This document shows, piece after piece, positions 24,769-44,645 of a stretch of DNA of 44,885 nt. Each line of letters begins with the position of its first letter. Position 1 is the first letter of the stretch. Source of the stretch: Limisphaerales bacterium. Its GTDB lineage: Bacteria; Verrucomicrobiota; Verrucomicrobiia; Limisphaerales; UBA11358. The notes beneath the pieces were generated by a model. The model made no database searches, was not told where the DNA came from, and was given only the letters and a program-made list of their open reading frames with translations. The translations under genes were made by a program, and so were the position numbers. The stretch is taken from assembly GCA_025360325.1 (NCBI GenBank), contig JANYCI010000340.1:1-44885 (forward strand), read 5' to 3'.

Positions 24769-25952
24769 AGTCCGACCAGTTCCAGCAGCCGTTTCAAAAC
24801 TATATCCGAGTCGAAAAATTCTTCCGCGATTGCCCGCGCACGTTTGGCGTGGTGCGCGTAGTCTGAATTCATCGCATCAATTGCGGCCAGCACGCTGTCA
24901 CTCGTGTCGAACGCAAACAGACCTTCGCCCGTCGGCAGTAAATTTTTGATGCCGCAGTCTTGGGCAATGACGGGGCGGCCGCTGGCAAGATAACAAACGC
25001 TGCGGTCGCTGAACCAGCCGCAACGCGACTGAACATAGCCGCTCTTGGCGAGGCCAAATTCCGCTTTCGACGTTTGGATGAATTCGCGATAGCTCGCGGG
25101 CGTGCTCGCTACGAGCATGGGGTCAAACAATTGCCAGCGGTTCGCTTGCAGCGCTGCCAAATCTTTCGTCTCGTCAGGATGAATCGCCAGTGCAAGCGTA
25201 AATTTTTCCGCCGTGCGCGTGGGCAAAGAAATAAATTGCCTCAGCGAATGAACTTTTTGGCCGTAGTTCACGCCATTGAAATCAATCGAGCCGTAGCCGC
25301 GCCAGTTGGCGATGGTCGTGAGCGCATCGTGTTTGATTTCGCGCGCGACTGGCCAGTGTTCCAGCACGACGGGTTGAAAAGTTTTCAGCCAGTTCAAACC
25401 GCACGTCGGCACAGGACATTCAATTTTAGATTTTGGATTTTGGATTTTGGATTTTTCGCCGCCGATGTTCTGCCCGATGGTGACGTGGTGCGTGTGCCCG
25501 GCGAAGCGCATATCAATCTGCTGCACCGCCTGCCAGAGCTGGTTGAACGCCGGATCGAGATCGAGATAAACGCGCACTGGAATTTTGGAAAATAAATTTT
25601 CGTCCGTGAGCAGCCCGGATATGTTCAGCAGCAAATCCGTGCGCGCAGCGATGCGTTTCAGCTCGTCATAGCTCAAGCCAAACGTGTCACGCGAACCGGC
25701 GAGCAGCAACGCGGCGTGGTCGCGCAAACCAAATTCGTCGCCGACAGATTGGAAGTAACGCGCGCTGTCCGGTTCAGCCAGTGCAGCGGACGCCGGACCC
25801 AAGGCTTGGGCTTGAATCGGCTCGATAAAAAAAACTTCGTGGCCGAGCCGACGCAGGCCGAGGACGTATTGCAGCACCGCCCACGTCGCGCCGCCTTGCC
25901 ACGGATCGGCGGCGATCATGCCGCTTACGATGATGGTGCGTTTAATTTTCAC
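24765..25952 (-). CDS. Uncharacterised GT-B-fold glycosyltransferase (paralog A)
   Basis: GGATWAVLQYVLGLRRLGHEVFFIE; SKAEFGLAK..Y....GWFSDRSVCYLASGRPV; ARAIAEEFFDS. Aligns with the two other paralogs. Confidence 0.75.
   Translation of the reverse strand: MKIKRTIIVSGMIAADPWQGGATWAVLQYVLGLRRLGHEVFFIEPIQAQALGPASAALAEPDSARYFQSVGDEFGLRDHAALLLAGSRDTFGLSYDELKRIAARTDLLLNISGLLTDENLFSKIPVRVYLDLDPAFNQLWQAVQQIDMRFAGHTHHVTIGQNIGGEKSKIQNPKSKIECPVPTCGLNWLKTFQPVVLEHWPVAREIKHDALTTIANWRGYGSIDFNGVNYGQKVHSLRQFISLPTRTAEKFTLALAIHPDETKDLAALQANRWQLFDPMLVASTPASYREFIQTSKAEFGLAKSGYVQSRCGWFSDRSVCYLASGRPVIAQDCGIKNLLPTGEGLFAFDTSDSVLAAIDAMNSDYAHHAKRARAIAEEFFDSDIVLKRLLELVGL
25423..25457. repeat. Heptamer tandem repeat (ATTTTGG x5, degenerate) inside a CDS
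   Basis: attttag attttgg attttgg attttgg atttttc; encodes KSKIQNPKSKI. Confidence 0.85.
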
Positions 25953-27145
25953 GGCAGCCCGAAACCGATTTCATCTGCCAGTTTGCGGATGATTTTATCG
26001 GCGTCAAAAAATTCTTCGGCGATCTCACGCGCGGCGCGGCAATGAAATTCGTAGTCGCGTGAAATTTTTTCCGCGCCTTCAACCGCTTCCTCCAAATTGC
26101 GAAACGCGAGCAAGCCTGCGCCCGTTTTGAGGTGCCGACTAAAACCAGTTTCTTGCACGAGCGCCGGACGGCCACTCGCGAGGTAACGCACCGTGCGGTC
26201 ACTGAACCAGCCGCTGTTGGTGTCCACATAAATGCCCTGCGCGGGCGAAAATTCGGCGGCGGAATTCTGGATGTAACTGCGAAATGAATTACAATCATGC
26301 GCCACTGATTGCGGTTCGATGACGCGCCAGCCGTATGCGAGGAGCGCGATCAAATCTTTTTTGTCCGCCGGATAGATTTGCAAGGCGATTTCAAATAAGG
26401 AATCGAGGAAACCAAGAACGTTCCCGCCTTCCTGCCTTCCTAATTCAAATCGGGTTTTTACGAGCCGGGGCAGTTCCAAAAGTTTCCGGAACTCGTGGCA
26501 CTTGAGGCCGTAGGTTTTTCCCGCGTGCGTGACCCGGCCGAACGCGCCGCGCCAACTGGCGATGGTGGTGAAGCGGTCGAACTCTTTTGGCGCGCAAACC
26601 GGCCAGTCGGTGAGCACGACGGGCGCGCGCGTGTGCCGCCAGTGGATGTTGCTCGTCGGAATCGGACAAGCGGGTGAGCCAATGTTTTCGCCGATGGTGA
26701 AATGAAAATCGTGACTTGTGAGCCGTAGGTCAGCGCCCTGCGCGTGCCAGAACTGCGTGAAACCGGGGTCGTCGTCGTAGTAAAGTTTGCAGCGGCACGC
26801 GGAGAAAATTTCCGGCTGCGTGATGTGGCCGCTCACGTTGAAGAGCAATGCGGATTCCTTGGCGCGCTTCACGAGTTCGGTGAGCGGCGGGCCGACGAGA
26901 ACTTCGTTGCCAGCAAGCAGCGCGGCGTTTTGCGAGAGACCAAATTGCACGGTGACGGCTTGGAAAAAATTTATTGAAGCGGCGTAAACGCCGCGCTCCG
27001 TCGCTGCCGGGAGTTGCTCGATGAAAAAAACCTCGCAGCCGAGCCTTTGAAATCCGCGCGCCCAACTCATGCGCGTCCACGCATTACCGCCGTTGCCGGG
27101 CTTGGTGGCCAGCGCGCCGCTGACGATGACGAGCGGTTTCTTCAC
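25949..27145 (-). CDS. Uncharacterised GT-B-fold glycosyltransferase (paralog B)
   Basis: GGNAW...GFQRLGCEVFFIE; SGWFSDRTVRYLASGRPA; AAREIAEEFFDA. Confidence 0.75.
   Translation of the reverse strand: MKKPLVIVSGALATKPGNGGNAWTRMSWARGFQRLGCEVFFIEQLPAATERGVYAASINFFQAVTVQFGLSQNAALLAGNEVLVGPPLTELVKRAKESALLFNVSGHITQPEIFSACRCKLYYDDDPGFTQFWHAQGADLRLTSHDFHFTIGENIGSPACPIPTSNIHWRHTRAPVVLTDWPVCAPKEFDRFTTIASWRGAFGRVTHAGKTYGLKCHEFRKLLELPRLVKTRFELGRQEGGNVLGFLDSLFEIALQIYPADKKDLIALLAYGWRVIEPQSVAHDCNSFRSYIQNSAAEFSPAQGIYVDTNSGWFSDRTVRYLASGRPALVQETGFSRHLKTGAGLLAFRNLEEAVEGAEKISRDYEFHCRAAREIAEEFFDADKIIRKLADEIGFGLP
26390..26450. repeat. 54-bp imperfect palindrome flanked by a 7-bp direct repeat, in-frame in a CDS
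   Basis: ttcaaat at 26390-26396 and 26444-26450, around taaggaatcgaggaaaccaagaa-cg-ttcccgccttcctgccttcctaa. Confidence 0.7.
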
Positions 27146-30148: not shown

Positions 30149-33100
30149 TCATTTTTTCGCTGCGGATTTTTGGCGACGCCGTGAACGGGCAGATTTTGCA
30201 GATTGAGCCAGCGCCCGCCTCGTCGCTTCGAGATACGCGCGGCCAAATTTTTCATCCGGCTCCAGATGCGTGCCTTCGGCCCACTCATTCCACGCGTTGA
30301 GAAAAACCACGCGCTCGCCCGCAGGCCGCGACCGCGCACGGGCGATGGCCTCGCGCAGCCATTGTTCGTAGGCGGCGGGCGTGGAATTGTGGAGCACCAC
30401 GGCCTCGTCGCCGCGCCGCGCGGAATTATCCCACGCCGGACAAACAGTTTCGTAACGTGGGTATTTCACCGGCGCAGGATTCGCCAGCACCCGCCACGCT
30501 TTTTGATAATCGAACACACGGAGTTTTTCTTTGCCCGGAATTTTGATTTCCGCGCCGGAGTTGAACAGTGTCGTGAACTGCGGCGCGAACAAAATTTTCG
30601 CGTCGAAGCCAACCTGCGTCGCGTCCCAGCCCGCGTCCCAGCCGGTCTCGACACTCATCAGATAAATTCCCGGCAGCCCCGCCGCCGCGACTTCGCGCCG
30701 CCATGTCGCGATGGTGCGCGCCGGATCGGGCAGTTCGCGGCCTTGATACACGATGAACACCGGTTTGTCCGCGATGCGGATCGCGCGTTTGTCTGCGAAC
30801 ACCGGCAGCAGCCAGCGGATGTGATTTACGTCGTCTTCCGGCGAATACATCTGCGGCTGCAAAATATTTTGCGCCTGCCCGTCCCAGCGCCGCGACCACG
30901 GCTCATTCGCCCAGCACAAACAAAACGGAAAATCCGGCTGCCCGCTCGCGAGAATTTCATTCACCGGTTTTTCCAAAAGCCGTTTGCCGCCGAACCAGTA
31001 ATGGTAGTAGCAAAACCCGTGGACGCCGTGCGCGCGCGCAAGTTCGGCCTGCGCCGCGCGGGCGCGGGCGTCGCGTAAATCATAGTAGCCGAGTTCGCCC
31101 GGAACCTGCGGCTGATGATGGCCGGCGAACGCGGGCTTGGCGCGGCGCACGTTCGTCCACTCGGTGAAACCTTCGCCCCACCACGCGTCATTTTCGGGAA
31201 TCTGATGGAACTGCGGCAGATGAAACGCTATAAGCTTCACCGCGTCGTCGGCAGACGTGAGAGAAATTTTCTTCGCGCCGCGCAGATCAAAAATAACACC
31301 CGCTGATTCGCTGCGGAAAATTTCTTGGCCGCTGACCGCCAAGTGCGTGGCGAAATCTTTGTAATGTTCCAGCCACCACAGCGCCGTCGCGGGCAGCGCG
31401 AAAAATTCCGCGCCGCGCTTCCGCAATTTTTCCAGTTGCGCGATGGCCGCCTTGCTGTCCGCCGGATGATGCCCCGCATAAATGCCGTCCTTCGTCTGCG
31501 GAAAATGCAGGCCACTGCGCGCGGGAATCCGCAGCAACTCCTCGTCGCCACGGCTCACAACCACCACTTTGCCTCCGGTGTGCGTGGCGTTTTCCACCGC
31601 GCCCACGAACGCCGCAACGAGCCGCGAGTAGGCGAGGTGCGGCAGTTTGCCCGGCTTGATTTCACCCGCATCCGGCGTGAGCAATGTGCGCTTCGCTGGC
31701 TTCGCCAGCACCTGCGCCACGACTTGCGCGAGGCTTTCGCGCGCCGTCTCGCGTCCGTGCAAACCGACGATGTGCTCGCGTCCCGCCTGCGCCATGCGCG
31801 TCCACAGTTCGTCATCTTCGAGCAACTGAGTGATGCGCTGCGCAAAAAGATTCGCGTTGTCCGCCACGAAAATTTCCCGTCCGTCTTGCAAGCCAAAACC
31901 CTCCGCACCGATGCTGGTCGAGACCGTCGGCGTGGCGAGCATGAGCGCCTGCAACGCTTTTCGCTTCGTGCCCGCCCCAAATAAAAGCGGGATCACCGTT
32001 GCCCGCGCGTGGCAGATATACGGCTCAACCGTCGGCGTCCAGCCAACCATTCGCACGCTTGGCAGATTTTTTCCGAACGCGCGCACCGTATCGTCGAGTC
32101 CGTCGCCGATGATGTGAACCGCATGCCGCGCGAGCAACTCCGGTTTCACGCGTGGCAAAATTTCCCGGCACAAAAATTCCACCGCGCCCACGTTCGGCAC
32201 ATGGCGGAAACAGCCGACGAACACCAGCCCGCGCCGTTCACTCAACGGCACGGGCGAGACTGGCAAGTCCTCGTTGTCCGGCACGGGATGCGCGAGCGCG
32301 GCGTCGGCGCAAAGGTCGTTGATGAGATTGGATTCCTTCGGCGACACCGTCAGCACCGCGTCCGCCGCCGCGTAGGTGTTCAGCTCGCGCATCATCTCCG
32401 AGGCGTAATTTGTGTCGAGCAACTTGCCGTCGCCGCCCAGAAAAGTTCCGCGCGCGAGCCGCAAAAAATGCAGATCAATCGAATCCACCACGATGCGCGT
32501 GCGCGGCGACAACGTGCGCAGCGTCGACACGAACGGCTCTGCGACGTGCCACAGCCCGAACACCGCCAGATCAAAATCGCCGCCCGCGATCAGTTCTTTC
32601 ATCCAGCGGCCCGCGCCCGCGAACACCGCGATGCCGCGCCGTTCCAAAATCTGCGCGTAACGCAGCTCGAAATTTTCGTGGTGCGAAACGAACGTCACCG
32701 CCCAGCCGGCCTCCTGCAAAAAAACAATCGTGTCGAATACGCGCCGCGAGCCGCTGTCGCGGTCGCACTCCGGCATCAGCGCGCAGACCAGCACGCGGCG
32801 TTGCGCCGGGTCGCGCACGGACAACGACAGCCGCGCGGCGAAATCTTCGCGGTGCGGACGCGGCGATTGTTTCGTCAGTTCCGTGCGCCACCGCGCGAGA
32901 AATTTTCCGTGGTTCACGACCTGGTAGCGCTTCATCCCCTTGGCCGTATCCAGCCCCGCCGTGCCGCCCTCGCGATGCACCACCGCGCTCTCCGGTTGAA
33001 AATAAACTTTGCGCCCGGCGGCGCGCACGCGGAAACAGTAGTCCGTGTCCTCGTAATAACCCGGGCGAAATTCCGTGTCAAAGCCGCCGAGCTTCTCAAA

Positions 33101-34492
33101 AAATTTGCGCGGCGTGGCGAACAATGCGCCGGAACAATAATCCGTCTCGCGCAGAAAGTTGAACAGCGGCGCGGTCAAATCCCCATCCGTGCGTCCGTAA
33201 TTCATCGCCGAGCCGTCGCGGAACACCACGCCGCCTGCCTCCTGAAACGTGCCGTCGGGGAAAATCAATTTGCCGCCGACCACGCCCGCATCCGCGCGTT
33301 CGCGGAACACGCGCAGCAACGGTTCGAGCCAGCCGGGCAACAGCGCGAGGTCGTTGTTGAGGAAGACCAGAATTTCACCGGTGGCCTGCGCCGCGCCGAA
33401 ATTGCAGGTGTCCACGAAGCCAAGATTTTTTTTGTTGCGGAAATTTTTCACGCGCGCGTCGCATCGCGCCCAGCGTTTGAGCATCGCCGCCGTGCCGTCC
33501 GTCGCGCAGTCGTCCACCACGATGACCTCAATGGCAAGGCGGCGCGGCAACGTTTCAAGCAGTGAGCGCAAACAGGCTTCAGTCATCGCCGCGCCGTTAT
33601 AGCACGGCATCACGATTGACACGCTCGTCTGCTTCGCGCTGGAAAAATCTGGTCGCCACTCAACCGCGAGCGTTTTCTTTTTCGCGTCCACCCGCACGAC
33701 CGCCGCGCTCGCCACGCGCCGCGCTTCGGCAAGATTCGTTTTTTGATTTGCCTCCACGACGACGATGTCGGCGGTGCGGTCCAGATACGGCAAAGAATTT
33801 TTCTCCGCCGTCGGTTGAAAAATCGTGAGCTGCGGAAAACTTTTTTTCAGGTCGCCGCCGGTCTGCCAGTCGAGAATCACCGGGTCGCGTTCGCAGCGCG
33901 CTTGAAACTCCGCGATGATTTCCGCGAACTTCGCCGTGAGATTTTTTGCGTCAGCTTTGGGCTTTTGCGTGAGCGACCAGATGGTTGCCGTGTCGCGCGC
34001 GTTCGCGATGAGGCGATAGCGTTCCTCCAAGTGACGGTGAAAACCAGCGTAGTGATCGAGCCACCAGAGCGACGGCTGCGGCAGCACGAAAAAATCCGCG
34101 CCCGCCGCGCGCCACGCTTCAAGCTGCGCGATGGCCGCAAGGTCGCCGCCGGGATGATAGCCGAGATATTCGCCGGAGCGACTGCGGGGGAAATGCCACG
34201 ACGTTTTGCAATGCTGTTGCAGCAATGCGGCGTCGCCCTTGGTAACGATGAGCGCGGTGGCGCGGCGCGGGATTTTTTTGGCGACGAGCGCGTGGACGCG
34301 CTTGAGCAGCGCACGGTGCGCGAGGACTTCCGGCGGCACGGCTTCCTTGGCCGACTGCGCCGCGTGCCGGACGCGCAACGCGTCGAGCCGCGCCGATTCG
34401 CGCTGCAACGCCTTTTCCTGTCGCGCCACGAGCGCGGCCAGCCGGGCGGCGGTCATTGTCTGCTTCTGATTTTTTTGCACTTTTGCTTTCAC
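30149..34492 (-). CDS. Multidomain glyco-enzyme: unnamed module + GT2 + GT4 + unnamed module + WbsX/GH99-like domain
   Basis: VSIVMPCYN...VVDD...VFLNND...YYEDTD (GT2); DRDSGS...VFVGCFRHVPN...GAGTKRK (GT4-like); LIAFHLPQFH.IPEND.WWG.GFTEW...NAWNEWAEGTHLEPD (WbsX/GH99-like). Confidence 0.88.
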   Translation of the reverse strand: MKAKVQKNQKQTMTAARLAALVARQEKALQRESARLDALRVRHAAQSAKEAVPPEVLAHRALLKRVHALVAKKIPRRATALIVTKGDAALLQQHCKTSWHFPRSRSGEYLGYHPGGDLAAIAQLEAWRAAGADFFVLPQPSLWWLDHYAGFHRHLEERYRLIANARDTATIWSLTQKPKADAKNLTAKFAEIIAEFQARCERDPVILDWQTGGDLKKSFPQLTIFQPTAEKNSLPYLDRTADIVVVEANQKTNLAEARRVASAAVVRVDAKKKTLAVEWRPDFSSAKQTSVSIVMPCYNGAAMTEACLRSLLETLPRRLAIEVIVVDDCATDGTAAMLKRWARCDARVKNFRNKKNLGFVDTCNFGAAQATGEILVFLNNDLALLPGWLEPLLRVFRERADAGVVGGKLIFPDGTFQEAGGVVFRDGSAMNYGRTDGDLTAPLFNFLRETDYCSGALFATPRKFFEKLGGFDTEFRPGYYEDTDYCFRVRAAGRKVYFQPESAVVHREGGTAGLDTAKGMKRYQVVNHGKFLARWRTELTKQSPRPHREDFAARLSLSVRDPAQRRVLVCALMPECDRDSGSRRVFDTIVFLQEAGWAVTFVSHHENFELRYAQILERRGIAVFAGAGRWMKELIAGGDFDLAVFGLWHVAEPFVSTLRTLSPRTRIVVDSIDLHFLRLARGTFLGGDGKLLDTNYASEMMRELNTYAAADAVLTVSPKESNLINDLCADAALAHPVPDNEDLPVSPVPLSERRGLVFVGCFRHVPNVGAVEFLCREILPRVKPELLARHAVHIIGDGLDDTVRAFGKNLPSVRMVGWTPTVEPYICHARATVIPLLFGAGTKRKALQALMLATPTVSTSIGAEGFGLQDGREIFVADNANLFAQRITQLLEDDELWTRMAQAGREHIVGLHGRETARESLAQVVAQVLAKPAKRTLLTPDAGEIKPGKLPHLAYSRLVAAFVGAVENATHTGGKVVVVSRGDEELLRIPARSGLHFPQTKDGIYAGHHPADSKAAIAQLEKLRKRGAEFFALPATALWWLEHYKDFATHLAVSGQEIFRSESAGVIFDLRGAKKISLTSADDAVKLIAFHLPQFHQIPENDAWWGEGFTEWTNVRRAKPAFAGHHQPQVPGELGYYDLRDARARAAQAELARAHGVHGFCYYHYWFGGKRLLEKPVNEILASGQPDFPFCLCWANEPWSRRWDGQAQNILQPQMYSPEDDVNHIRWLLPVFADKRAIRIADKPVFIVYQGRELPDPARTIATWRREVAAAGLPGIYLMSVETGWDAGWDATQVGFDAKILFAPQFTTLFNSGAEIKIPGKEKLRVFDYQKAWRVLANPAPVKYPRYETVCPAWDNSARRGDEAVVLHNSTPAAYEQWLREAIARARSRPAGERVVFLNAWNEWAEGTHLEPDEKFGRAYLEATRRALAQSAKSARSRRRQKSAAKK

Positions 34493-34530
34493 AAATCAAA
34501 CCGTTTTTCTCACCGGCTCGCAAGCCGGTG

Positions 34531-35772
34531 TTATTTTCTGGTCACGTCAAAAATCATTCCCAAATGAGGGTTTTCCGCGACGGGCGGCGACCGGCGCAAT
34601 TCGTCGGCAAAGCGCGGATAAATTTCCAGCCACCACCGCGCACTGTGCGGCACCGCGAGAAATTGCGCGCCGTGGTTGCACGCGGTTTCCAGTTGCGTCA
34701 GCGCCTCGGCGTCGTCGGCTGGATGAAACCCGGCGTAACGGCTCTGCGCGTCGCGGGGAAAATGTTCCGGCGCGCGCGCGGTGAACTTCAAAAGATTGTC
34801 GTCGCCCTTGCTCACGACGGCCACGCGCGCGCCCGGCGGAGTGTTTTTCTGCACGAACCCATTCCATTGCGGCACGAATAATTCATAGGCCAGCGCATCG
34901 AGATCGAGTTGCTTGGCGGTGGTCAAATTGCCAGCCAACATTTTCGGCGCATCGGCAAAGCCCGCTTCACCGCATAACTGCGCGTAGAGATTGATGATTT
35001 CCGGCGCGACGGAAATGTTCGTGAGTTGTTCGCCCGTGAACCGCGTGTGCCGCAATTCCGGCTTGGTCGTGGCGGCGATCTTGTTTGTCTCGACTTCAGA
35101 AATTTTCAGCCCGCAAAAATCTGCGAGCCGCAGCAGCGTCGCGGCTGGCTGCGTGAAAAAATGTTCGTAGTGAACCACGAGGCGTTGCGAACGCGGCACA
35201 TCCGCGAGCAAGCGTTCGTTGTAAACACGCCACAATTTCAAGCCCAGCGCATACGACATCAGCCCGCGCCGCCGCAGCGAAAGTGCCACCTCCAGCGGAT
35301 GCCGCACGCAGACCACCACGCGCGCATCTGGCGCCAACGCGAGCCAGAACGGCAGCAGCAAACTCGCACGCGGGTCTTTCCAGCCCCACGGCGCAGTGGG
35401 ACAGGCGTCCCGCCTGTCCAGTTTCGGCTGTGCCGACGTTGACTGACCTGCGTGACTTGACAGGCGGGACGCCTGTCCCACTAGCTGTGCGTGAATTTCC
35501 TTTCCACGTTCACGCAATGCGGAAAACTTTTCCGCCCAACGCGCAGGAAATTCCGGCACGTTGTCCCAACCGCCGCCGAGTTCGTTGAGCAACGCGTCGT
35601 TCACTTCCGTGACCGCGATGTTTTCCCAGTGACCGTCAGGATTGTCCGGCGTCGCGCCGTGAAGTTCATTTTCTTCGCCCAGCCAAAGCCCGCACTGCCG
35701 CAGCAGATTTGCCGTGAGCGACGTGCCGGAGCGGTGCATCCCCGTGACGATGATGGGCGCGCGTTCAGCCAT
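34531..35772 (-). CDS. Sulfotransferase-family protein with C-terminal unnamed module
   Basis: IIVTGMHRSGTS (PAPS-binding loop), NPDGHWE, WGWKDPR, VRHPLEVALSL. Confidence 0.88.
   Translation of the reverse strand: MAERAPIIVTGMHRSGTSLTANLLRQCGLWLGEENELHGATPDNPDGHWENIAVTEVNDALLNELGGGWDNVPEFPARWAEKFSALRERGKEIHAQLVGQASRLSSHAGQSTSAQPKLDRRDACPTAPWGWKDPRASLLLPFWLALAPDARVVVCVRHPLEVALSLRRRGLMSYALGLKLWRVYNERLLADVPRSQRLVVHYEHFFTQPAATLLRLADFCGLKISEVETNKIAATTKPELRHTRFTGEQLTNISVAPEIINLYAQLCGEAGFADAPKMLAGNLTTAKQLDLDALAYELFVPQWNGFVQKNTPPGARVAVVSKGDDNLLKFTARAPEHFPRDAQSRYAGFHPADDAEALTQLETACNHGAQFLAVPHSARWWLEIYPRFADELRRSPPVAENPHLGMIFDVTRK
35393..35484. repeat. REP-like inverted pair inserted in-frame in the sulfotransferase gene
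   Basis: Perfect 24-nt IR agtgggacaggcgtcccgcctgtc (35395-35418) / gacaggcgggacgcctgtcccact (35459-35482); same family as 30007-30110. Confidence 0.88.
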
Positions 35773-37075
35773 GCAGTTTGTAAATGTTGCCCGAATTTTT
35801 GTCCGCCGCCACCAGCCGCGCGTTGCGTTTCAAGAATGTTGCGAACTCCCGGTAATGCTTCAGCCACCACAACGCCGCCTGTGGAATCACGAGATGATCT
35901 GCTTGCGGCAACAGTTTTTTCAGCGCCACCACCGCCGCCTTTCCGTCCGCCGGATAAAAGCCCGCATAACTGCCCGTCACCGACTGCGGAAAATGTTTCG
36001 CCGCGCGCCCGCCGAGTTCCAGCAGTGCATTGTCGCCCTTGCTCACGACCAAAATTTTTGCACCGCGCGGAACGGCCCGGCGAACCAGCTTGCGGAGACG
36101 GGCGCGCATCAAATCATATTCCAGCGCGGGCGAGGCCGTGGCCGCGCCGCCGAGTTCGGCGATGAGTTTCGTGACTTCACGCGTCAGCCCGGCAAGCTGG
36201 CGGTTTTTCGCGGCATAACTTTTTTCCAGCGCGTCTTTGCGCCCGGCGTCCACGACGGCGAGTTCCGGCGAAACTTTCAGGTGCAGCGGAAACTGTCCTT
36301 CATAGTTCAGCTCCAGCAATCCGTCAGCGAGAAAAAATCTCAAATCGTCCGGCTGGACTTTCGCGAACCAACGCTGCCGGTAGCGCGCGACGTTGTGTTT
36401 ATCATGCTGGAACCGTCCGGGCGCGACCGACTCAAAATGTTTCACCACGCTCTCGGCGCAGTAATGAATTTCGTGTCCGCGCTCGCCGAGGCGCAAGCAG
36501 AAATCCACGTCCTCAAAACCGTTCTTAAACTTCGTGTCAAAGCCGTGCGCGGCGATGAAAACTTTTCGACGAACGAGCATCGCGGCGCCGGTCACGATTT
36601 GAAAACGGCGCGACTGATTGACTGCGGGATGATTGGCGGGAAATCCGGTGTAGATGTGGCGCGGGTATTTGTCCTGACAAATAATCACACCCGCGTGCTG
36701 GACGGTTTGATTCGGGTAGAGCAGTTTGCTACCGATGGCGGCGGATTGGGGATTTTTCTTTGCGCAATTTTCCAGCGCCCGCAACCAGCCCGGCTGCGGA
36801 ATCGTGTCGTTGTTGAGGAACACGAGGAACTCCGTGCGCGCGGCCTTCGCGCCGTCGTTGCAGGTTTTGGCGAACCCACAGTTTTTCTTGTGCGCGATGA
36901 CTTTGATTTTGTCGCCGAACTGCGCGAGCATTTTCAGCGTGCCGTCGGACGAGGCGTCGTCCACCACGATGATTTTGCAACCGCCGATTCGCAGCACGGC
37001 GTCGAGGCACTGCTGCGTGAGCGCGGCGTTGTTGAATGCCGGAATGACGACGGTGGATTGCAGAGCGCTACGCAT
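35765..37075 (-). CDS. GT2 glycosyltransferase with C-terminal unnamed module
   Basis: VVIPAFN, IIVVDDASSDGT, LVFLNNDT, VTGAAML, GFEDVDFCLR. Confidence 0.9.
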   Translation of the reverse strand: MRSALQSTVVIPAFNNAALTQQCLDAVLRIGGCKIIVVDDASSDGTLKMLAQFGDKIKVIAHKKNCGFAKTCNDGAKAARTEFLVFLNNDTIPQPGWLRALENCAKKNPQSAAIGSKLLYPNQTVQHAGVIICQDKYPRHIYTGFPANHPAVNQSRRFQIVTGAAMLVRRKVFIAAHGFDTKFKNGFEDVDFCLRLGERGHEIHYCAESVVKHFESVAPGRFQHDKHNVARYRQRWFAKVQPDDLRFFLADGLLELNYEGQFPLHLKVSPELAVVDAGRKDALEKSYAAKNRQLAGLTREVTKLIAELGGAATASPALEYDLMRARLRKLVRRAVPRGAKILVVSKGDNALLELGGRAAKHFPQSVTGSYAGFYPADGKAAVVALKKLLPQADHLVIPQAALWWLKHYREFATFLKRNARLVAADKNSGNIYKLHG

Positions 37076-39578
37076 TTTTTCCTCCCAGTTCGTAAATGAT
37101 GCACGTCGCCTCGTCGCGCAGTTTCACGACGGCGGTTTTTTCCAGATGCTCACGCAAGCCGGTGTAGTGTTCCAGCCACCAGAACGCGGGCTGCGGCAGC
37201 AGAAAATAATTTGCACCGGCGGCACGCAGCCTTTCGAGATGCGCGACGGCCTCGGTGCTGTCGGCGGGGTAAAGGTTCGCGTAGCTGCTGTCGGCGGCCT
37301 GCGGGAAATGCGCGCCGCACTGCGGGGAAAAATTCACGAGCGCGTCATCGCCCTTGCTAACGACCAGAATTATTGCGGCCCTCGGAAGCTGCGCGGCGAC
37401 GGCACGGACGCGTTCACGAAGCGCTTCATATTCCGGTGTGATGCGGCGCGCGTGTGGCTGCCATTTCACATTCCATTTCTTTTCGAAGCGCTCGCGATTG
37501 CTTTCCAGCACACGATCATATTCACCGTTCGTGCAAAGTTCACCAAACGACGCCTGGCCGAAGTGATGCACGAAAACATCTTCAGCGCATACGATTTTGA
37601 ATCCGGCAGCACGGACACGGCGGGAATAATCATCGTCCTCGAACATCCCAACCTCGAACTGTTCGTCCAGCGGGCCGACTTTTTGGAAAACCTCGCGCCG
37701 CATCGCCACGCAGAACATGGCGAGCATGGGGATTTCGCTTTGAGAACTGGACGTTCCAAATTGTAAGGTGCGGGCGGCGGCAAATTTTTCCAACTCGGCA
37801 AACGTGCGATACGGCGCGTCAATCTGCGCCTCGTTGCAAGTGCGGTTCGTGACCGGCCCGACGAGGCCGACTTCCGCTTTCTGCAAATGTGCGAGCAAAC
37901 CATCGCGCCAGCCGGGGAGAATGACCGTGTCGTTGTTGAGGAGAATTAAAATTTCGCCGGTCGCAAGCTTCAGGGCTTGATTGTTGGCGGGAGCAAAGCC
38001 GTGGTTTTTTTTGTTGAGGACGAGTTTCACGAACGAATTTTTCTGCGCGAGTTCACGGAGAAATTCCGGCGTGCCGTCGGTCGAAGCGTTGTCCACGACC
38101 AGAAGTTCATCTCCATCATGCCAGTCGGCGAGCAGCGTGGTGAGGCAGAGTTTCGTGTAGGCAAGGCCGTGGTGCGTGACGAGGATGACTGAAACGAGTT
38201 TTGAATTTTTATTTTTTAATTTTGAATTAAAAACCGGCGTCAGCAGCGCGAGCGCGGTCTGGATGGTCTGCTCCGGCAGACGCGTGGGCCAGCGGGAAAT
38301 GGGCGTGAGAAGGAGTGACGCGGGTAGGACAGGCGTCGCGCCTGTCTCCATTTTTTCAGAACTCACATTATTAAAATTAGAGACAGGCGCGACGCCTGTC
38401 CTACGCAGGCCAAGCTCGCCCAAAATTTTTCCGAGGACAACCTCGTGCGAAAAAAATTCGCGCGCGAGATCGCGCGCGGCACGGCGGTGCTTTTCGTAAT
38501 CGCCGTTGATGGCCTCCACGGCAGCGCACAAGTCATCCATCGTCGAAAACGAAAACAATCCGTTACCGGTGGGAAAAATGTTTCCAAAAGCTGTGTCTTG
38601 CGTGATGACGGGACGGCCAGCCGCGAGATAGGTCACGGCGCGGTCACTGAACCAGCCGCTGCGGAGCTTGATGTTCTGCTCTTTTGCCACCGTGAACTCA
38701 CCGCGTGAACCGCCAATGTAGTCGCGGTAACGGTCGAGGTCTTGCGAGACTTCGAGGCCGGGGCGCACGCGCCAGCCGTTTTGCTCCAACGTTTTTTGGT
38801 CGTCGGCGTTGTAGCTGGAGAGTGCGAGTTCAAACGGCTGCGCCGAAAATTTCTGCGGGAGCGAAATGAATTTCTCGAACTCGAAATGTTTGCTCCAGCG
38901 CAAGATCTCGCCGTTGAACTGCACTTCGCGCCACGGCTGCCGCCAGTTGCCGATGGTGGTGAAGGCCTCGCCGTGGCCGAGTCCGTGCTGTTCCCAAAAT
39001 TCCATCACGACGGGCTGGCGCGTCGGAAGAAAATTGAACTGCGATGGTTTCGGCACACGGCAGTCGGGCGCGCCGAGATTTTCGCCGAAGGTAAAAAACG
39101 CGCAGTGGGGTTGGAGATAATCGAGCGCTTCTTTTTTGCCGTTAAAAATTTCAATCTGCAAATCCACCGGATCGGTCTCCAGAAAAACCAGCCGGTTCGT
39201 GGCGGTGAGTTCTTCGGTGGGCAGATGGCTGCCGTGAAGATTGATGATAAGCGCGGCGTCACGGTAGAGATTTTTGAGCTGCGACTGGGTCATGCCGAAC
39301 CAGCGCGAATCGTAGATCGCGTGATAGGCCCAGTTGTTTTGCAGGCCGAAACGGGTCATCACACCGGCGATGTATTCGGCGGCACGCGCCGGGCCATCGT
39401 CCTTGTCATCGCGCATCAGCTTGCTCGGCGTGCAGCCGTGCGCTTCGACGTAGAAAACTTCGCAGCCAAGTTTTTGCAGGCCGATGAGATAATGAATCGT
39501 CTGCCACGCGACGCCCGCGACGGGGAAGTGGCTCAAGAAGCCGAGCAGGACAATTTTTGGTTTGCGCGTGACGTTCAT
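37068..39578 (-). CDS. Fusion: GT-B paralog C + GT2 + C-terminal unnamed module
   Basis: AGVAWQTIHYLIGLQKLGCEVFYVE...SGWFSDRAVTYLAAGRPV; VVDNASTDGT...LLNNDT...MFEDDDY. Confidence 0.85.
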   Translation of the reverse strand: MNVTRKPKIVLLGFLSHFPVAGVAWQTIHYLIGLQKLGCEVFYVEAHGCTPSKLMRDDKDDGPARAAEYIAGVMTRFGLQNNWAYHAIYDSRWFGMTQSQLKNLYRDAALIINLHGSHLPTEELTATNRLVFLETDPVDLQIEIFNGKKEALDYLQPHCAFFTFGENLGAPDCRVPKPSQFNFLPTRQPVVMEFWEQHGLGHGEAFTTIGNWRQPWREVQFNGEILRWSKHFEFEKFISLPQKFSAQPFELALSSYNADDQKTLEQNGWRVRPGLEVSQDLDRYRDYIGGSRGEFTVAKEQNIKLRSGWFSDRAVTYLAAGRPVITQDTAFGNIFPTGNGLFSFSTMDDLCAAVEAINGDYEKHRRAARDLAREFFSHEVVLGKILGELGLRRTGVAPVSNFNNVSSEKMETGATPVLPASLLLTPISRWPTRLPEQTIQTALALLTPVFNSKLKNKNSKLVSVILVTHHGLAYTKLCLTTLLADWHDGDELLVVDNASTDGTPEFLRELAQKNSFVKLVLNKKNHGFAPANNQALKLATGEILILLNNDTVILPGWRDGLLAHLQKAEVGLVGPVTNRTCNEAQIDAPYRTFAELEKFAAARTLQFGTSSSQSEIPMLAMFCVAMRREVFQKVGPLDEQFEVGMFEDDDYSRRVRAAGFKIVCAEDVFVHHFGQASFGELCTNGEYDRVLESNRERFEKKWNVKWQPHARRITPEYEALRERVRAVAAQLPRAAIILVVSKGDDALVNFSPQCGAHFPQAADSSYANLYPADSTEAVAHLERLRAAGANYFLLPQPAFWWLEHYTGLREHLEKTAVVKLRDEATCIIYELGGKNA
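38198..38228. repeat. Degenerate AT-rich heptamer repeat inside a CDS linker
   Basis: gttttga attttta tttttta attttga att; encodes NSKLKNKNSKL. Confidence 0.6.
38324..38404. repeat. GTAG-type REP inverted pair (81 bp) in-frame in the GT-B/GT2 linker
   Basis: Perfect 25-nt IR gtaggacaggcgtcgcgcctgtctc / gagacaggcgcgacgcctgtcctac around an AT-rich spacer. Confidence 0.9.
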
Positions 39579-39672: not shown

Positions 39673-41523
39673 TCATACTGATTGCGCCGTGGCGGTGGCG
39701 AGTTTGCTTTGGCGGACGGCGGCGATTTGCGCGTCGTAGAGTTGTTTGTAGAGTCCGTTTTTCGCGATGAGTTCATCCTGCGTGCCGCGCTCGACGAGTT
39801 CGCCGTGGTTGATGACGAGGACTTGATCGGCGTGTTTTAACGTGGAGAGGCGATGCGCGATCATGAACGTGGTGCGGCCAACCATGAGGCGTTCGAGCGC
39901 TTCGAGAATCACGGCTTCGGTCTTGGAATCCACGGAGGAAGTGGGTTCGTCGAGAATCAGAATCGGCGCGTCCTTCAAAAACGCCCGCGCGACGGCGACG
40001 CGCTGGCGTTCGCCGCCGGAAATTTGCGCGCCGCGTTCGCCGAGAATCGTTTCATATTTTTGCGGCAGACGTTCGATGAAGTCATGCGCGTTCGCGGCTT
40101 TCGCGGCGGCTATGATTTCTTCTGTGGTCGCTTCGAGGCGACCGTAGCGGATGTTCTCGGCAATCGTGCCGGAAAACAACAACGGCTCTTGCAACACGAT
40201 GCTGATCTGCGCCCGGAGCGATTTGAGCGTGAGGTCGCGGAGGTTCACGCCGTCGAGAAAAATGCCGCCAGCCTTCGCGTCGTAGAAGCGCGGAATCAAA
40301 CTCACAAGCGTGGATTTGCCCGCGCCGGTCTGGCCGACGATGCCGATGACTTGTCCGGGTTTGGCCTCAAACGAAATTTTTTTCAACGTGTCCACGCGGC
40401 CGGTGTAGCTGAAATCCACGTTTTCAAAACGGACGCCGCCGCGCACGCGTTCGATGTTTTTTGCCGTTGGCGAATCTTTGATGTCCGGCACGGTGTCGAG
40501 AAATTCAAACGTGTTTTTCAGCGAGATGAAGCGATCCTGCAACGAGCCGATGGTGAAGCTGATTTGTTCGAGCGGTTTGTAGATGGCGGCAATGTAAGCA
40601 ATGATGACGGTGAGTTCGCCCACAGTGAATGCGCCCGCCGGCCAACCGGCTTGCTTCGCGTGCAACACGTCCACCGCGCCGAGGCCCAGCACGAGCGCGG
40701 CACCGATGGCGGTGATGAAATTCACGACAAGCGAAAAAATCGTCTGGCGCACGGTGACTTTCACGCGCTCCTTCACGGCGAGCGTGGTCTGGTCGCGGAA
40801 ACGCTTGTGCTCCCGGTCTTCACGCCCGAACGCGACGATGACGCGCATCATGGCGAACGCCTCGTGGATGATGGAGAGCGATTCGGATTCGAGCGTGCGG
40901 ACGCGCTGGATTTTGTCCTGGATATGCGTGGCGTAGTAGCCGACGGAGTAATACAAAAATGGCACGACGGTAATCGCGGCGAGCGCGAGCTTGGGATTGA
41001 GGTGATACGTCACCCAAAACATTCCGACCAATGTCAGCGCGGCTTCGACGAGCATGGGGATGGTCATCACGAGTCCGGCGGGCGCGTCGCCCTGGCTGTT
41101 GATCATGTAGATCAAACCGCCGCTGCGCCGCTGGTCGTGGTAGGCGAGCGACATTTTCTGCGCGTGCAGAAACATCTCGCTGCGGAAATCGAGCGTGATG
41201 TTTTGATCAATTTTCGTGTTCACGAAATTGGCGGCGACGTGGAGCGCATCGAGGATGAGCAGCAGCCCGAGACCCGCGAGCGCAGCGAAGAGGATGAGCG
41301 CAGTGGGATTCGACGCGATGGAGGTGGGAATCCATTGCAACCAAGAGGCGAGCTGCTTGTCGCCGAGAGCGTTGTCAATCACGATGAGCAGCGGCCACGG
41401 CGTCGCGAGCGTGACGATGGCCGTGAGCACGGTCAGTGCCACCGAGAGCGCGGCGAGCGTCCGGTGCGGACGCAGGTAGCGCAGGGTGCGCTTGACATAG
41501 CGCATCGGAATAGTGCTTTTCAT
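39673..41523 (-). CDS. ABC exporter, fused TMD-NBD (MsbA/NdvA-like)
   Basis: N-terminal TM helices; GQTGAGKST, ISGGERQR, ILILDEPTS, IAHRLST. Confidence 0.95.
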   Translation of the reverse strand: MKSTIPMRYVKRTLRYLRPHRTLAALSVALTVLTAIVTLATPWPLLIVIDNALGDKQLASWLQWIPTSIASNPTALILFAALAGLGLLLILDALHVAANFVNTKIDQNITLDFRSEMFLHAQKMSLAYHDQRRSGGLIYMINSQGDAPAGLVMTIPMLVEAALTLVGMFWVTYHLNPKLALAAITVVPFLYYSVGYYATHIQDKIQRVRTLESESLSIIHEAFAMMRVIVAFGREDREHKRFRDQTTLAVKERVKVTVRQTIFSLVVNFITAIGAALVLGLGAVDVLHAKQAGWPAGAFTVGELTVIIAYIAAIYKPLEQISFTIGSLQDRFISLKNTFEFLDTVPDIKDSPTAKNIERVRGGVRFENVDFSYTGRVDTLKKISFEAKPGQVIGIVGQTGAGKSTLVSLIPRFYDAKAGGIFLDGVNLRDLTLKSLRAQISIVLQEPLLFSGTIAENIRYGRLEATTEEIIAAAKAANAHDFIERLPQKYETILGERGAQISGGERQRVAVARAFLKDAPILILDEPTSSVDSKTEAVILEALERLMVGRTTFMIAHRLSTLKHADQVLVINHGELVERGTQDELIAKNGLYKQLYDAQIAAVRQSKLATATAQSV

Positions 41524-44018
41524 TTTCCGCTCACAGATTTTAATTTCATTTCGCGAATCGTCCGGCGAACCAGCGCCATCGCTGCCGCGCTTTCAACGAT
41601 CATCGCCACCAGACAAATCAAAGTCACCGCGCCGAACACGCCCACGGCCACCCACGCGGCATCAAGCGCGGCACCGAGCGTCAGCACCGCCGCGTAACTC
41701 AACGTGATGAGCGACGCGTCCGGCCAGTGCGGCCACAGTTTGAAACGGATATTTTGTTTTTCACCGCCGTGTTCCTCGGCCAGCAACCGCAGTCGCACCG
41801 CGCCCAGCACGCCACCGCGAATTTCCAAATCCCAGCGGTCATAATCGCCGCCGCGAAAAACGCCCGCGCCCGCTTCCTGCAACGGAATTTCCACGGCCAG
41901 CAGCCAGTCGGTCGGCGACCGCCAGCGTTCGCTCCACACGACTTTCTCTCCCGGCAGCGGCAGGGCGAAACCAGTCAGCCGGCGTCGGCCCCACGGTGTT
42001 AGCCCCGCGCCAACGCGTCCGCGTAACCGCGCAATGGGCTGCAGCAAATTCAGCAACGACACCAGCGCGAACTGGGAAAAACCGTTCAGCGGCAGCCGCC
42101 GCGCCTGCAACACGGCCCGCGCAACGGTGATGCCAACCGCGATCACCAAAATCGGAGCGAACCACAGGAGCGGTTTCCAGAATGGTGCCAGCGCCAGCAA
42201 AATAATCAGCGCGAAAATAATCACATACCATTCCGGCATCCGCACGACCGACCAGAACGTGCTGGGCGCCGGCTCGTAGAGCGATTGAAACAGCGCGCTG
42301 CCCCAGGTGCCGTGATAAATCCGCGAACGTCCCACCGTGAGCGCCGCGAGCCGGCCGAGTCCATAGATGCGACCATGCCACGCGGGCTGCCCGGCGGCGT
42401 TGTATTTCGCGGGCCACTTGCGTTCGAGCGCGGCCTCGGCCTTGCCGTAGCCGGATTGTTGTTTCCAATAGGTGCCGATAGTTTGCCGCCGGTGGTGCCA
42501 GACCATCGCGCCGGGATGGAAACCGATTTTCCAACCGGCATAGTGAAAACGCCAGCAGATATCCACGTCATCACCCGCGACCAAGAAGCGCGGATCAAAT
42601 CCGCCGAGTGCGAGCAGCGCGGATTTGCGGAACGCCATGTTGCAGCCGGGAATGTGCTCGGCCTCGCGGTCGGTGAGCAAAACGTGGATCGGGCCGCCGG
42701 GCGCGTGGGCGACGCAGCGAGCGGTGAAATTTTCCGTGGCGGGCGGAATGTTCGGCCCGCCGGCGGCGGCGCAGTCCGTCGTGGCGAACGTGTGCGCGAG
42801 AAATTTCAGCCAGTGCGGATCAGGCCACGCATCGTCGTCGAGATAGGCGACAATTTCACCTGTCGCAGCTTCGCAACCGGCGTTGCGCGCCGCGCTCAAA
42901 CCGGAGTGGGTCTGGTTGACGAGCCGCACGGGAAATTGTTTGGCGATGGCGGCGACGCGTTCATCCGCGCCGTCGTTGACCACGATGACTTCGTAGTCGG
43001 GATACTCCACGCGCTGCAAACCGGCGAGCGATTCGTTCAGCGTGGCCGCGCCGCGATAAGTGCAAATCACAACGGAGATGCGCGGCCAGGAATTTTTTCC
43101 TGCGAACGGCAGTTGCGCGAACGCCTCCCGAACGGCGGCGAGCGAAAGTTTTTCCGTGCGGTCGCGGCGCGTGAGGCCAAAGTCCCAGTCGAGAATGTCG
43201 TTGCCGCCGCGATGCCATTCGTCCGTCCACGAAAAAATAAAAACACCGGCCACGCCGCCCTCGAACGCAAGCCGCAACTGCCAATCCAGCGATGCGGCCT
43301 GACCGGACTCACCGTTGCGGCGGCTGTCGAGACCCACTTCCGTGAACAGCAGCGGCTTGTCCGCCGCGAGATTTTGCAAGCGCGCAAGATAGGCAGAAAA
43401 TTTTTCCGGCGTTTCGAGATAGACGTTGAAACAAAATAAATCCACGAACGGCAGTTCGAGATATTCAGTCGAAGGATAGTTGACATAGGCGATCAGCGCA
43501 TCGGGCGCATCCGCCTTGGCGAGCAGATACAGGCGGCGGATGAATTTTTCAATCACGCGCGGCCCGTGCCAGCGGACGACCGGCGCAGGAATCTCGTTGC
43601 CGATGGCGAAGCCCAGCAGCGCGGGATGGCCGGCGCATGCCCGCACACCCTCGGAAATTTTTTCCTCGACGCGCCGGGTAATTTCCTCGTCGGCCAAAAA
43701 CGCGACGTGCTGCTCCCACGGCAAACCGACGAGCACCCAGATTTGTTTTTCGTGCGCGAGGTCCAGCAGCCAGCGCGGCGGAACGGTGTAGAGGCGGACG
43801 GCGTTGATGCCGGTCGCGGCCATGGTTTCAAAATCACGCGCAGCGATTTCCGGGTCGTGGTATTCGCAGCCGTTGCTTTCGGGACGGAATGGGCCGTAGG
43901 TGACGCCGCGCAAAAAAAGTTTTTCCTCACCGAGCCAGATAAATTTTCCACGAACCACCGGGCGGGGGGAGACAGTTTCAATTTTTGAGTCGGGGTTGGA
44001 GGCGTGGCGGGATGACAT
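41520..44018 (-). CDS. Fusion: clan GH-A (GH2-like) TIM barrel + GT2 + C-terminal TM helices
   Basis: LRGVTYGPF, INAVRLY, AIGNEIP (acid/base), LLFTEVG (nucleophile), FSWTDEW; ISVVICTY, VVNDG, YLDDDA, PGCNM, GDDVD; hydrophobic C-terminus. Confidence 0.85.
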   Translation of the reverse strand: MSSRHASNPDSKIETVSPRPVVRGKFIWLGEEKLFLRGVTYGPFRPESNGCEYHDPEIAARDFETMAATGINAVRLYTVPPRWLLDLAHEKQIWVLVGLPWEQHVAFLADEEITRRVEEKISEGVRACAGHPALLGFAIGNEIPAPVVRWHGPRVIEKFIRRLYLLAKADAPDALIAYVNYPSTEYLELPFVDLFCFNVYLETPEKFSAYLARLQNLAADKPLLFTEVGLDSRRNGESGQAASLDWQLRLAFEGGVAGVFIFSWTDEWHRGGNDILDWDFGLTRRDRTEKLSLAAVREAFAQLPFAGKNSWPRISVVICTYRGAATLNESLAGLQRVEYPDYEVIVVNDGADERVAAIAKQFPVRLVNQTHSGLSAARNAGCEAATGEIVAYLDDDAWPDPHWLKFLAHTFATTDCAAAGGPNIPPATENFTARCVAHAPGGPIHVLLTDREAEHIPGCNMAFRKSALLALGGFDPRFLVAGDDVDICWRFHYAGWKIGFHPGAMVWHHRRQTIGTYWKQQSGYGKAEAALERKWPAKYNAAGQPAWHGRIYGLGRLAALTVGRSRIYHGTWGSALFQSLYEPAPSTFWSVVRMPEWYVIIFALIILLALAPFWKPLLWFAPILVIAVGITVARAVLQARRLPLNGFSQFALVSLLNLLQPIARLRGRVGAGLTPWGRRRLTGFALPLPGEKVVWSERWRSPTDWLLAVEIPLQEAGAGVFRGGDYDRWDLEIRGGVLGAVRLRLLAEEHGGEKQNIRFKLWPHWPDASLITLSYAAVLTLGAALDAAWVAVGVFGAVTLICLVAMIVESAAAMALVRRTIREMKLKSVSGK

Positions 44019-44021
44019 GGG

Positions 44022-44645
44022 TCAGAATTTTAGAACCACGTCATTCGTCTGCGACTGCGTCGTGGCGGCAACATGACCGTCGAAAAATAAAAAATTAGCC
44101 CGCGCGCTGTGCCGGTAGCTGATCTGGTCGCCGGACAGCATCTCCACCGGCGGATGATTGTAGCTGGAGATGACATCGCCGAGGTAAAACGTCTGCGCGG
44201 GCGACTTGACCTCGGATTCCTTACGGGTCGTGGGCAGCGGAAAATTCACGGCGGTGTAGGCGTTCATGCCGAAGCTGATCTGGAAGGTGTTGTTGACCGC
44301 GTCGGGTTCCAGCTTGCGTCCGGGGCAGGAATAAACGCCGGTTTCAAAATCATCATCGCCATTGAAATCCCACTGCTGGCCGAGAATCTCCGGGGCGAGC
44401 AACGCGTAGAAATTATTTTCCGTTGGATCGGGATCATCCACCCACGCGAACGGCAGCCGGTGATCGTTCTCTTCGGTGTAAAGCGTCGCGCCCAGAAAAA
44501 CTTGCCGGAGATGGCCGGTGCATTGCACGGCATAGGCGCGCTGCTTGGCCTTGGTGAGCGCGGGCAGCAGCAACGCCGCAAGAATGGCGATGATCGCGAT
44601 GACCACCAGTAATTCCAGCAGGGTGAATGCTCTGATTTTTTTCAT
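44022..44645 (-). CDS. Prepilin-type N-terminal cleavage/methylation protein with H-X9-DG motif (DUF1559-like)
   Basis: MKKIRA-FTLLELLVVIAIIAILAALLLPAL; C-terminal RHSARANFLFFDGHV. Confidence 0.92.
   Translation of the reverse strand: MKKIRAFTLLELLVVIAIIAILAALLLPALTKAKQRAYAVQCTGHLRQVFLGATLYTEENDHRLPFAWVDDPDPTENNFYALLAPEILGQQWDFNGDDDFETGVYSCPGRKLEPDAVNNTFQISFGMNAYTAVNFPLPTTRKESEVKSPAQTFYLGDVISSYNHPPVEMLSGDQISYRHSARANFLFFDGHVAATTQSQTNDVVLKF

Follow-up and report, generated by a model that had tools for sequence, protein, structure and literature searches.

Why should four different enzymes of one gene cluster each carry the same small module, one of them twice? The question is raised by a 44,885-nt stretch of DNA from a Limisphaerales bacterium (Verrucomicrobiota; assembly GCA_025360325.1, contig JANYCI010000340.1, positions 1 to 44,885 of the forward strand), called the window here in its full length, in which an earlier note made from the sequence alone had reported five diverged copies of an unnamed module on four enzymes and had proposed a shared docking or acceptor-binding domain. 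We found all five copies at the places given for them, on the minus strand, and showed that the module is an autonomous cytoplasmic accessory domain, used in sets and common to the soluble enzymes of a single glycan pathway that is linked to an exporter; it is very likely non-catalytic. Of the function proposed earlier, a non-catalytic accessory module common to the soluble enzymes of one pathway held up, and neither docking nor acceptor binding was singled out. Judged from sequence comparisons, the copies represent a real, widespread and unnamed domain family that marks an apparently undescribed conserved glycan assembly cassette, and its context gives good grounds for a putative role as a tether or docking tag that the enzymes share.

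The five copies are hosted by four neighbouring, co-directional genes on the minus strand, P1 to P4, as established from the open reading frame (ORF) list, the translations and Pfam. In the list below, GT2 and GT4 are glycosyltransferase families 2 and 4, residue ranges are in amino acids (aa), the limits of the modules take in a leading helix and lie within about 20 nt of the coordinates in the earlier note, and the E-values of the modules come from a scan of the bacterium's own genome.

30149-34492, minus strand: P1, 1447 aa, consisting of a coiled-coil-like N-terminus, module a, GT2 (aa 292-510), GT4 (aa 755-912), module b and WbsX (aa 1087-1424)
34531-35772, minus strand: P2, 413 aa, consisting of Sulfotransfer_3 (PF13469, aa 6-225, E 3.9e-18) and a C-terminal module
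35765-37075, minus strand: P3, 436 aa, consisting of GT2 (PF00535, aa 8-129), a helical linker and a C-terminal module
37068-39578, minus strand: P4, 836 aa, consisting of an unnamed N-terminal domain (N-domain) of ~395 aa, GT2 (aa 463-680) and a C-terminal module
33953-34330, minus strand: module P1a, P1 aa 55-180 (profile match aa 77-176), E 1.8e-57
31268-31645, minus strand: module P1b, P1 aa 950-1075, between GT4 and WbsX, E 1.5e-56
34534-34905, minus strand: module P2, P2 aa 290-413, E 3.6e-55
35768-36133, minus strand: module P3, P3 aa 315-436, E 7.8e-55
37071-37445, minus strand: module P4, P4 aa 712-836, E 5.6e-56, the copy used for modelling

These Pfam domains agree with the host enzymes named before, namely a sulfotransferase, a GT2 protein, a GT2 protein with a preceding N-domain and a multi-domain protein of 1447 aa. 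The copies, each ~120 aa long, were 33-44% identical in pairs over 100 aa, with a BLASTP E-value of 8e-22 for the least similar pair, and a profile built from all five returned exactly these five matches in a six-frame scan of the genome (4.03 Mb, 372 contigs, 88.6% complete). The columns invariant across the five copies (V, G, D, L, H, F, P, Y, P, A, L, A, P, W, W, L, Y, L and I) matched the consensus motif of the earlier note, and G32, D33, H46, P60, P84, W89, W90, L91, Y94 and L101 were invariant in 79 sequences from several phyla. Counting the 38 positions kept in at least 75% of those 79 sequences as conserved, the window copies retained 30-36 of them (30 in P1a, 36 in P1b, 31 in P2 and 32 in P3).

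Searches for a known family were negative throughout. When the four whole proteins were compared with Pfam and NCBIfam at E ≤ 1, only the catalytic domains matched and no named family covered any of the five stretches. When the 79 module sequences were scanned singly against Pfam with a limit of E ≤ 1, the most that any one family matched was 5 of the 79 (best E-value for that family, 0.051), and a profile of the 79 sequences found only chance-level matches among the PDB sequences, for example designed TIM barrels at E 0.003-0.02 over 19 residues. The check that the earlier note had set against its own claim was in this way run on Pfam, NCBIfam and the PDB sequences, and all three were without a match. 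Module-only proteins also bore only a dash in a precomputed Pfam column, which is newer than the local Pfam copy, since it reaches accession PF28422 and the local copy lacks PF27383. The 29 nearest ESM-Atlas clusters were annotated as hypothetical proteins and had no Pfam 38.1 family in common; the P4 and P1b copies matched a PF27383 'SF2091' cluster (119 aa, Pseudomonadota) with scores of 0.93-0.94 but only 116-127 of 256 features shared, and DUF2079, DUF6798 and DUF6541 clusters with scores of 0.84-0.88, all of which may be chance matches. Full-text literature searches retrieved no description of such a module, a weak absence in that word searches cannot detect a sequence motif.

We then turned to the fold. 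An AlphaFold2 model of the P4 copy, in which the leading helix was included (125 aa in all, 79-row alignment), had a predicted local distance difference test score (pLDDT) of 93.6 and a predicted template modelling score (pTM) of 0.88, and showed a compact α/β fold in the order helix, strand, short helix, strand, long loop, helix, strand, helix and β-hairpin (helices H and strands E: H4-17, E25-29, H34-37, E43-47, H63-75, E80-84, H89-93, H95-104, E105-111 and E115-120). The helical segment that had been described as preceding the module is present, yet it partly belongs to the fold, since H4-17 is a helix of the model (pLDDT 92-96). Foldseek against the PDB gave nothing at E ≤ 0.001 for the single module (best 3vu0_A, E 0.013), and a wide VIA-align search of 48161 chains gave none at Z ≥ 8 and 26 at Z ≥ 5. 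The best of the latter were 7zlg_A (Z 6.2, root-mean-square deviation (rmsd) 3.6 Å, 102 aligned residues), 3vu0_A (Z 6.0, rmsd 3.6 Å, 103 aligned) and 6wbx_A (Z 6.0, rmsd 3.7 Å, 109 aligned), and after these came periplasmic-binding-protein lobes and methyltransferases of class I. As the tool is calibrated, matches at Z about 6 are at the level of a common α/β arrangement and lie within its stated noise. Class I S-adenosylmethionine (SAM) methyltransferases are defined by a seven-stranded sheet whose first strand is followed by a glycine-rich motif I; they matched the module weakly (Foldseek E 0.03-0.5 and TM-scores 0.29-0.48; VIA-align Z 4.6-5.3), and neither hallmark was found in it, S-K/R-G-D following strand 1 and the model having five strands. 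A natural two-module protein was modelled with pLDDT 90.4 and pTM 0.71. Its best Foldseek match was RsmC at E 8.8e-4 with a TM-score of just 0.24, its best VIA-align match had Z 6.1, and it aligned with two-lobe folds of the periplasmic-binding-protein and LacI type over 170-183 residues at Z 4.7-5.2 and rmsd 5.4-6.5 Å (e.g. 5hqj_A).

The family proved to be large. Compared with 1.84 billion cluster representatives defined at 50% identity, the five-copy profile matched 3960 at E ≤ 0.001; of these, 2304 passed a cut-off of 1e-10 and 687 one of 1e-30, and as many as 7 stretches of a single protein were matched. An indexed search of longer proteins gave 921 matches among 8000 scored candidates, and the 120 of these that were listed comprised 50 with Pfam domains and 70 without any. 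The nameable partners on those 50 were GT2-like, GT4-like, WbsX, SAM-methyltransferase (including FkbM) and sulfotransferase domains only, some of the accessions being ones which we take to carry these names; PF28422, on one of the 50, was the sole partner family without an assigned identity. Those inspected among the 70 Pfam-less proteins consisted of a coiled coil and then two or three modules. A further 323 matching proteins were 67-221 aa long, and stand-alone forms of the module exist, since several of these short proteins sit on long contigs. Across 368 module proteins, a sample ranked by score that favours multi-copy proteins, the number of copies was one in 123 proteins, two in 214, three in 26, four in 4 and six in 1. 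Of the copies in proteins of at least 400 aa, 47 lay in the N-terminal third, 130 in the middle and 160 in the C-terminal third, and the module adjoined five unrelated catalytic folds at N-terminal, middle or C-terminal positions. A strongly hydrophobic 19-mer was present in 3 of the 368 proteins.

Within genomes, the module occurs in sets. A pattern scan of one genome per species yielded 77 loci, a biased sample in that a single WWL-centred pattern from the five-copy alignment was used. Based on six-frame ORFs and a domain E-value cut-off of 1e-5, at least two module ORFs were found in 60 of the 77 loci and at least three in 25; among the 52 loci of at least 15 kb, the corresponding numbers were 39 and 21. 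The module ORFs within a locus were adjacent and co-directional. Five genomes reached through these loci had 4, 7, 6, 2 and 2 matches, mainly on one contig, and among 121 genomes from the order to which one Solirubrobacterales genome belongs, 21 had matches, with 3-14 each and none with one or two (this count includes G501, an unpublished genome with 5 matches). The self-contained fold, the varied positions and catalytic partners, the presence of 1-6 copies, the module-only coiled-coil proteins, the adjacent gene clusters and the per-genome sets together support the idea of an accessory module.

The 77 loci, all in metagenome-assembled genomes, came from Verrucomicrobiota, Planctomycetota, Actinomycetota (many Solirubrobacterales, also Gaiellaceae and Acidimicrobiales), Chloroflexota (Limnocylindria), Acidobacteriota, cyanobacteria, a Syntrophothermus and a Dongiaceae, the closest (L007) being 89% identical and from a Verrucomicrobiota genome. 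Closer to home the module was rare: it was not found in the 24 same-genus genomes searched, and occurred in 1 of 16 same-order genomes and in 2 of 401 genomes of an even draw of the phylum, the window's own included, with the 10 best candidates per genome scored. Because it is missing from these same-genus genomes and near-syntenic cassettes occur in other phyla (L008, L039 and L059, from Chloroflexota and Actinomycetota genomes), the glycan cluster looks, on comparative grounds, like a patchily distributed, horizontally moving island.

A common gene order was seen in L034 (Verrucomicrobia), L008 (Limnocylindrales) and L039 (Solirubrobacterales): an exporter of the ATP-binding cassette (ABC) type with ABC_membrane and ABC_tran domains, a P4-like protein (N-domain, GT2 and module), a GT2 protein with the module, and further tagged enzymes or a module-only protein. 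Homologues of the window exporter were present in 45 of the 77 loci, the P4 N-domain family in 66-67, and homologues of a membrane GT2 synthase (at least 100 bits) in 36; WbsX was found in 8, the sulfotransferase in 10 and a 687-aa methyltransferase in 2. These counts indicated a constant core accompanied by variable tailoring enzymes. In L039 the open frame with the exporter (positions 1319-5983 of that locus) encodes 1554 aa, of which ~940 residues before the ABC membrane domain have no Pfam match; the extra residues may be a fused domain, or the start codon may have been called too far upstream.

To place the window copies among their relatives, a FastTree phylogeny was built from 57 modules, the 5 of the window and 52 from 16 chosen loci (E ≤ 1e-10, envelope at least 90 aa). 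The tree grouped modules by host enzyme rather than by genome, with support of 0.991 for the P4-type clade (14 tips, 2 of them from ORFs without an N-domain label), 0.989 for the P3-type, 0.992 for the P1a-type, 1.0 for the P2-type and a weak 0.608 for the P1b-type. The five window copies were spread over the whole tree, and each grouped with copies on orthologous enzymes from other phyla. Since they span the tree in classes that follow the host enzyme, the phylogeny indicates that the modules are old paralogues inherited along with their enzymes. Recent duplication or within-genome homogenisation of the copies was considered and rejected on the same spread and grouping.

The remaining genes of the system lie around P1 to P4 as follows.

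39673-41523, minus strand: MsbA/HepA-like ABC exporter, 616 aa, membrane and ATPase domains fused (Pfam ABC_membrane and ABC_tran)
41520-44018, minus strand: membrane GT2 synthase-like protein, 832 aa, with an N-terminal TIM-barrel glycosidase-like part (Pfam)
25949-27145, minus strand: paralogue of the P4 N-domain, 398 aa
24765-25952, minus strand: paralogue of the P4 N-domain, 395 aa

Start and stop codons overlap between P4 and P3 (8 nt, 37068-37075), P3 and P2 (8 nt, 35765-35772) and the synthase and exporter (4 nt, 41520-41523), which suggests translational coupling inside one operon. No transmembrane-like segment was predicted in P1, P3 or P4, and the single weak one in P2 falls within its catalytic domain; the exporter has five and the synthase-like protein four. 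The top NCBIfam scores of the exporter were for MsbA, glucan-exporter and HepA models, every one below its cut-off.

The two paralogues share 36% identity with aa 1-395 of P4 (window 38394-39578) and, with it, form a family with a conserved GWFSDR..YLA.GRP stretch. The earlier note had called this N-domain GT-B, a label that we could back only weakly, through a Pfam match of one paralogue to Glyco_trans_1_2 (E 3.4e-4) and weak PDB matches to GtfA/Gtf3-like chains (E 0.05-0.1), the paralogues having no NCBIfam match. The family probably consists of GT-B-type transferases that belong to the same system as the module. A kinship between the module and this family was considered and rejected (hhalign probability 0.03, E 0.93).

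The wider glycan cluster (18954-44018) also encodes a carbamoyltransferase, a YdjC-like protein, an APH-like kinase and a P-loop/methyltransferase protein, and continues with the two N-domain paralogues, P1 to P4, the exporter and the membrane synthase. Inside it, on the opposite strand, lies a 652-aa protein with Ig_3 and I-set immunoglobulin-type domains (21125-23083, plus strand). Elsewhere in the window there is a two-partner-secretion (TPS) pair (8458-15562, minus strand), a 1400-aa TPS-domain protein beside a POTRA/ShlB/Omp85 frame; the N-terminal part of that frame bears an AraC-type helix-turn-helix, and it is probably two genes listed as one ORF. At 44022-44669 (minus strand) there is a DUF1559 protein with a prepilin-type N-methylation motif, of a family typical of Planctomycetota and Verrucomicrobiota, in keeping with the closest related loci being from Verrucomicrobiota.

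What, then, might the module do? We tentatively favour a tether that binds a nascent glycan or lipid-linked intermediate common to the enzymes, a reading to which we give somewhat less than an even chance. On this model the module would tag soluble enzymes that work in the cytoplasm on a single glycan assembly line, itself coupled to an exporter of the MsbA/HepA type. A putative pocket would lie at the C-terminal ends of three parallel strands, and its lining would come from the residues S-K/R-G-D, H-F-P, Y-A-G, P-A-D-S and W-W-L-x-H-Y, which are invariant in the family; the DSSP assignment of the AlphaFold2 model places the conserved motifs directly after strands 25-29, 43-47 and 80-84. Strand C-terminal ends are the usual ligand crevice of doubly wound α/β folds, and Trp, Tyr, His and Asp are typical sugar-binding residues. 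The pocket might bind a substrate feature shared by all the enzymes, the nascent glycan backbone or its lipid-linked primer, and the conserved core enzymes may make such a constant backbone or primer. Glycosyl-, sulfo- and methyltransferases could in this way be held on the growing chain beside the exporter, much as by a carbohydrate-binding module but in the cytoplasm, and tandem copies or module-only coiled-coil proteins might provide avidity or act as adaptors. The placement of the motifs after strands, their richness in Trp, Tyr, His and Asp, the multiple copies and the constant core are what favour a tether.

Several points weigh against it. The pocket is read from the secondary structure of a model alone, and some of the invariant residues (W, W, L, Y, P and G) may simply form the fold core. 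Characterised carbohydrate-binding modules are mostly β-sandwiches, unlike the α/β fold of the module. The coiled-coil and module-only proteins look like scaffolds. In addition, the pTM of 0.71 for the tandem model hints at module-to-module contact, given that two independently placed halves would reach at most about 0.5 by our own estimate from the TM-score definition, and such contact would fit docking as well.

Docking is the main rival, which we regard as possible but doubtful: by binding to one another, or to a coiled-coil hub made only of modules, the modules would bring consecutive enzymes into one complex at the exporter, much as dockerin-cohesin pairs or the docking domains of polyketide synthases do. 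Their occurrence in sets (at least two ORFs in 60 of 77 loci and at least three in 25; 3-14 matches in 21 of 121 genomes) speaks for it, as do the conserved non-catalytic proteins made of a coiled coil and 2-3 modules, the pTM that the predicted tandem reached, and the age of the module classes, which follow the host enzyme as a pairing code would require. Coiled-coil-scaffolded multiprotein complexes are also used by ABC-transporter-dependent O-antigen systems (PMC11231755). However, the strongest conservation is equal in all classes, largely polar or aromatic and without a class-specific surface pattern, and odd copy numbers per locus are common. A complex prediction for the P4 and P3 modules (79-row alignment each) scored 0.00 in both runs, which, being without controls, carries no weight either way.

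A third explanation, recruitment of the enzymes by modules that bind a conserved cytosolic surface of the exporter or membrane synthase, or the membrane itself, appears unlikely. The tagged enzymes lack membrane segments, which the exporter and synthase have; exporter homologues occur in 45 of the 77 loci and synthase homologues (at least 100 bits) in 36, and a conserved partner surface could explain the invariant residues. Against this, no exporter was present within the fetched flanks of 32 of the 77 loci, many of those contigs being short, and an exporter dimer would offer only a few sites, for which five or more modules would have to compete.

Improbable, in our view, is a small-molecule sensor or regulatory domain, for example one in which a nucleotide or second messenger gates all the enzymes. 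The Rossmann-like fold with conserved residues at strand ends and the weak structural matches to methyltransferases and periplasmic-binding-protein lobes (Z about 5-6) are consistent with such a domain, whereas a glycine-rich nucleotide loop is lacking (S-K-G-D follows strand 1), Pfam and PDB sequence searches gave no match, and up to 6-7 copies per protein would be unusual. A small enzyme acting on the glycan, such as an esterase, phosphatase or epimerase, would fit the conserved Asp, His and Ser, but five copies per cluster and tandem arrays are not needed for a catalytic step and no similarity to any enzyme family emerged from the Pfam, PDB sequence, Foldseek or VIA-align searches, which makes this very improbable.

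Returning to a module that tethers or docks, we consider a broader and speculative reading, on which we would not bet but which deserves mention: that the module is the portable 'plug' of an unrecognised, horizontally mobile, exporter-coupled cytoplasmic glycan assembly line, the tagged transferases being recruited by docking or by binding to the nascent chain. If true, it would account for the exchange of sulfo-, methyl- and WbsX-type tailoring enzymes among loci in at least five phyla with the exporter, the P4-like enzyme and the tag constant. Bacterial glycobiology has yet to explain how soluble glycosyltransferases and tailoring enzymes form ordered assembly complexes, and here the module, found on every soluble enzyme of one pathway, offers a defined handle of 120 aa that folds and is conserved between phyla as distant as Verrucomicrobiota and Actinomycetota. 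The family also flags a conserved, apparently undescribed cassette around an MsbA/HepA-type exporter in mainly uncultured soil and freshwater bacteria, and if the tag alone were enough to recruit an enzyme, engineered polysaccharide pathways could be given further tailoring enzymes by means of it.

Among known systems, the nearest in organisation are the coiled-coil-scaffolded polymerase-terminator complexes of ABC-transporter-dependent O-antigen assembly (WbdD/WbdA, WbbB, Klebsiella O4/O7), whose enzymes are kept together at the membrane through protein-protein contacts (PMC11231755). As in the window, soluble multi-module glycosyltransferases, methyltransferases and terminating enzymes are encoded beside an ABC exporter there, and coiled coils occur in both. 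Those complexes are not known to have a recurrent globular tag on every enzyme and recruit via a region of WbdD beside an amphipathic helix. The exporter here also differs in being a fused MsbA/HepA-like half-transporter. A Wzm/Wzt pair is used by the O-antigen ABC systems.

The Wzt ATPase of these transporters carries a carbohydrate-binding module (PMC11231755). Being cytoplasmic, non-catalytic and able to recognise finished or nascent glycan, it is the closest functional analogue of the proposed tether. It differs in sitting on the transporter, not on the enzymes, and Pfam and PDB sequence searches found no sequence relation between the two. The Wzt module is a β-sandwich, and the present one is α/β.

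In structure, the soluble α/β domains of GT-C proteins (DPY19, AglB/PglB/STT3, AftD, ALG12 and ArnT) were the top matches in two independent searches (Z about 6), which, for comparisons made with a predicted model, is a lead and not a result. The oligosaccharyltransferase domain carries a WWDYG acceptor-binding motif, reminiscent of WWL(D/E)HY in the module. The C-terminal globular domain of STT3, AglB and PglB lies on the periplasmic or luminal side, fused to a GT-C membrane domain, whereas the module sits in soluble proteins (P1, P3 and P4 are without a transmembrane-like segment, and only 3 of 368 module proteins contain a strongly hydrophobic 19-mer).

Finally, the dockerin-cohesin pairs and the docking domains of polyketide and non-ribosomal synthases show how a small portable tag repeated on different enzymes can direct assembly. 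Their folds are unrelated to that of the module and the cellulosome is extracellular; a glycan assembly line built on a portable plug would, if it exists, be the cytoplasmic, biosynthetic counterpart of the dockerin logic of the cellulosome.

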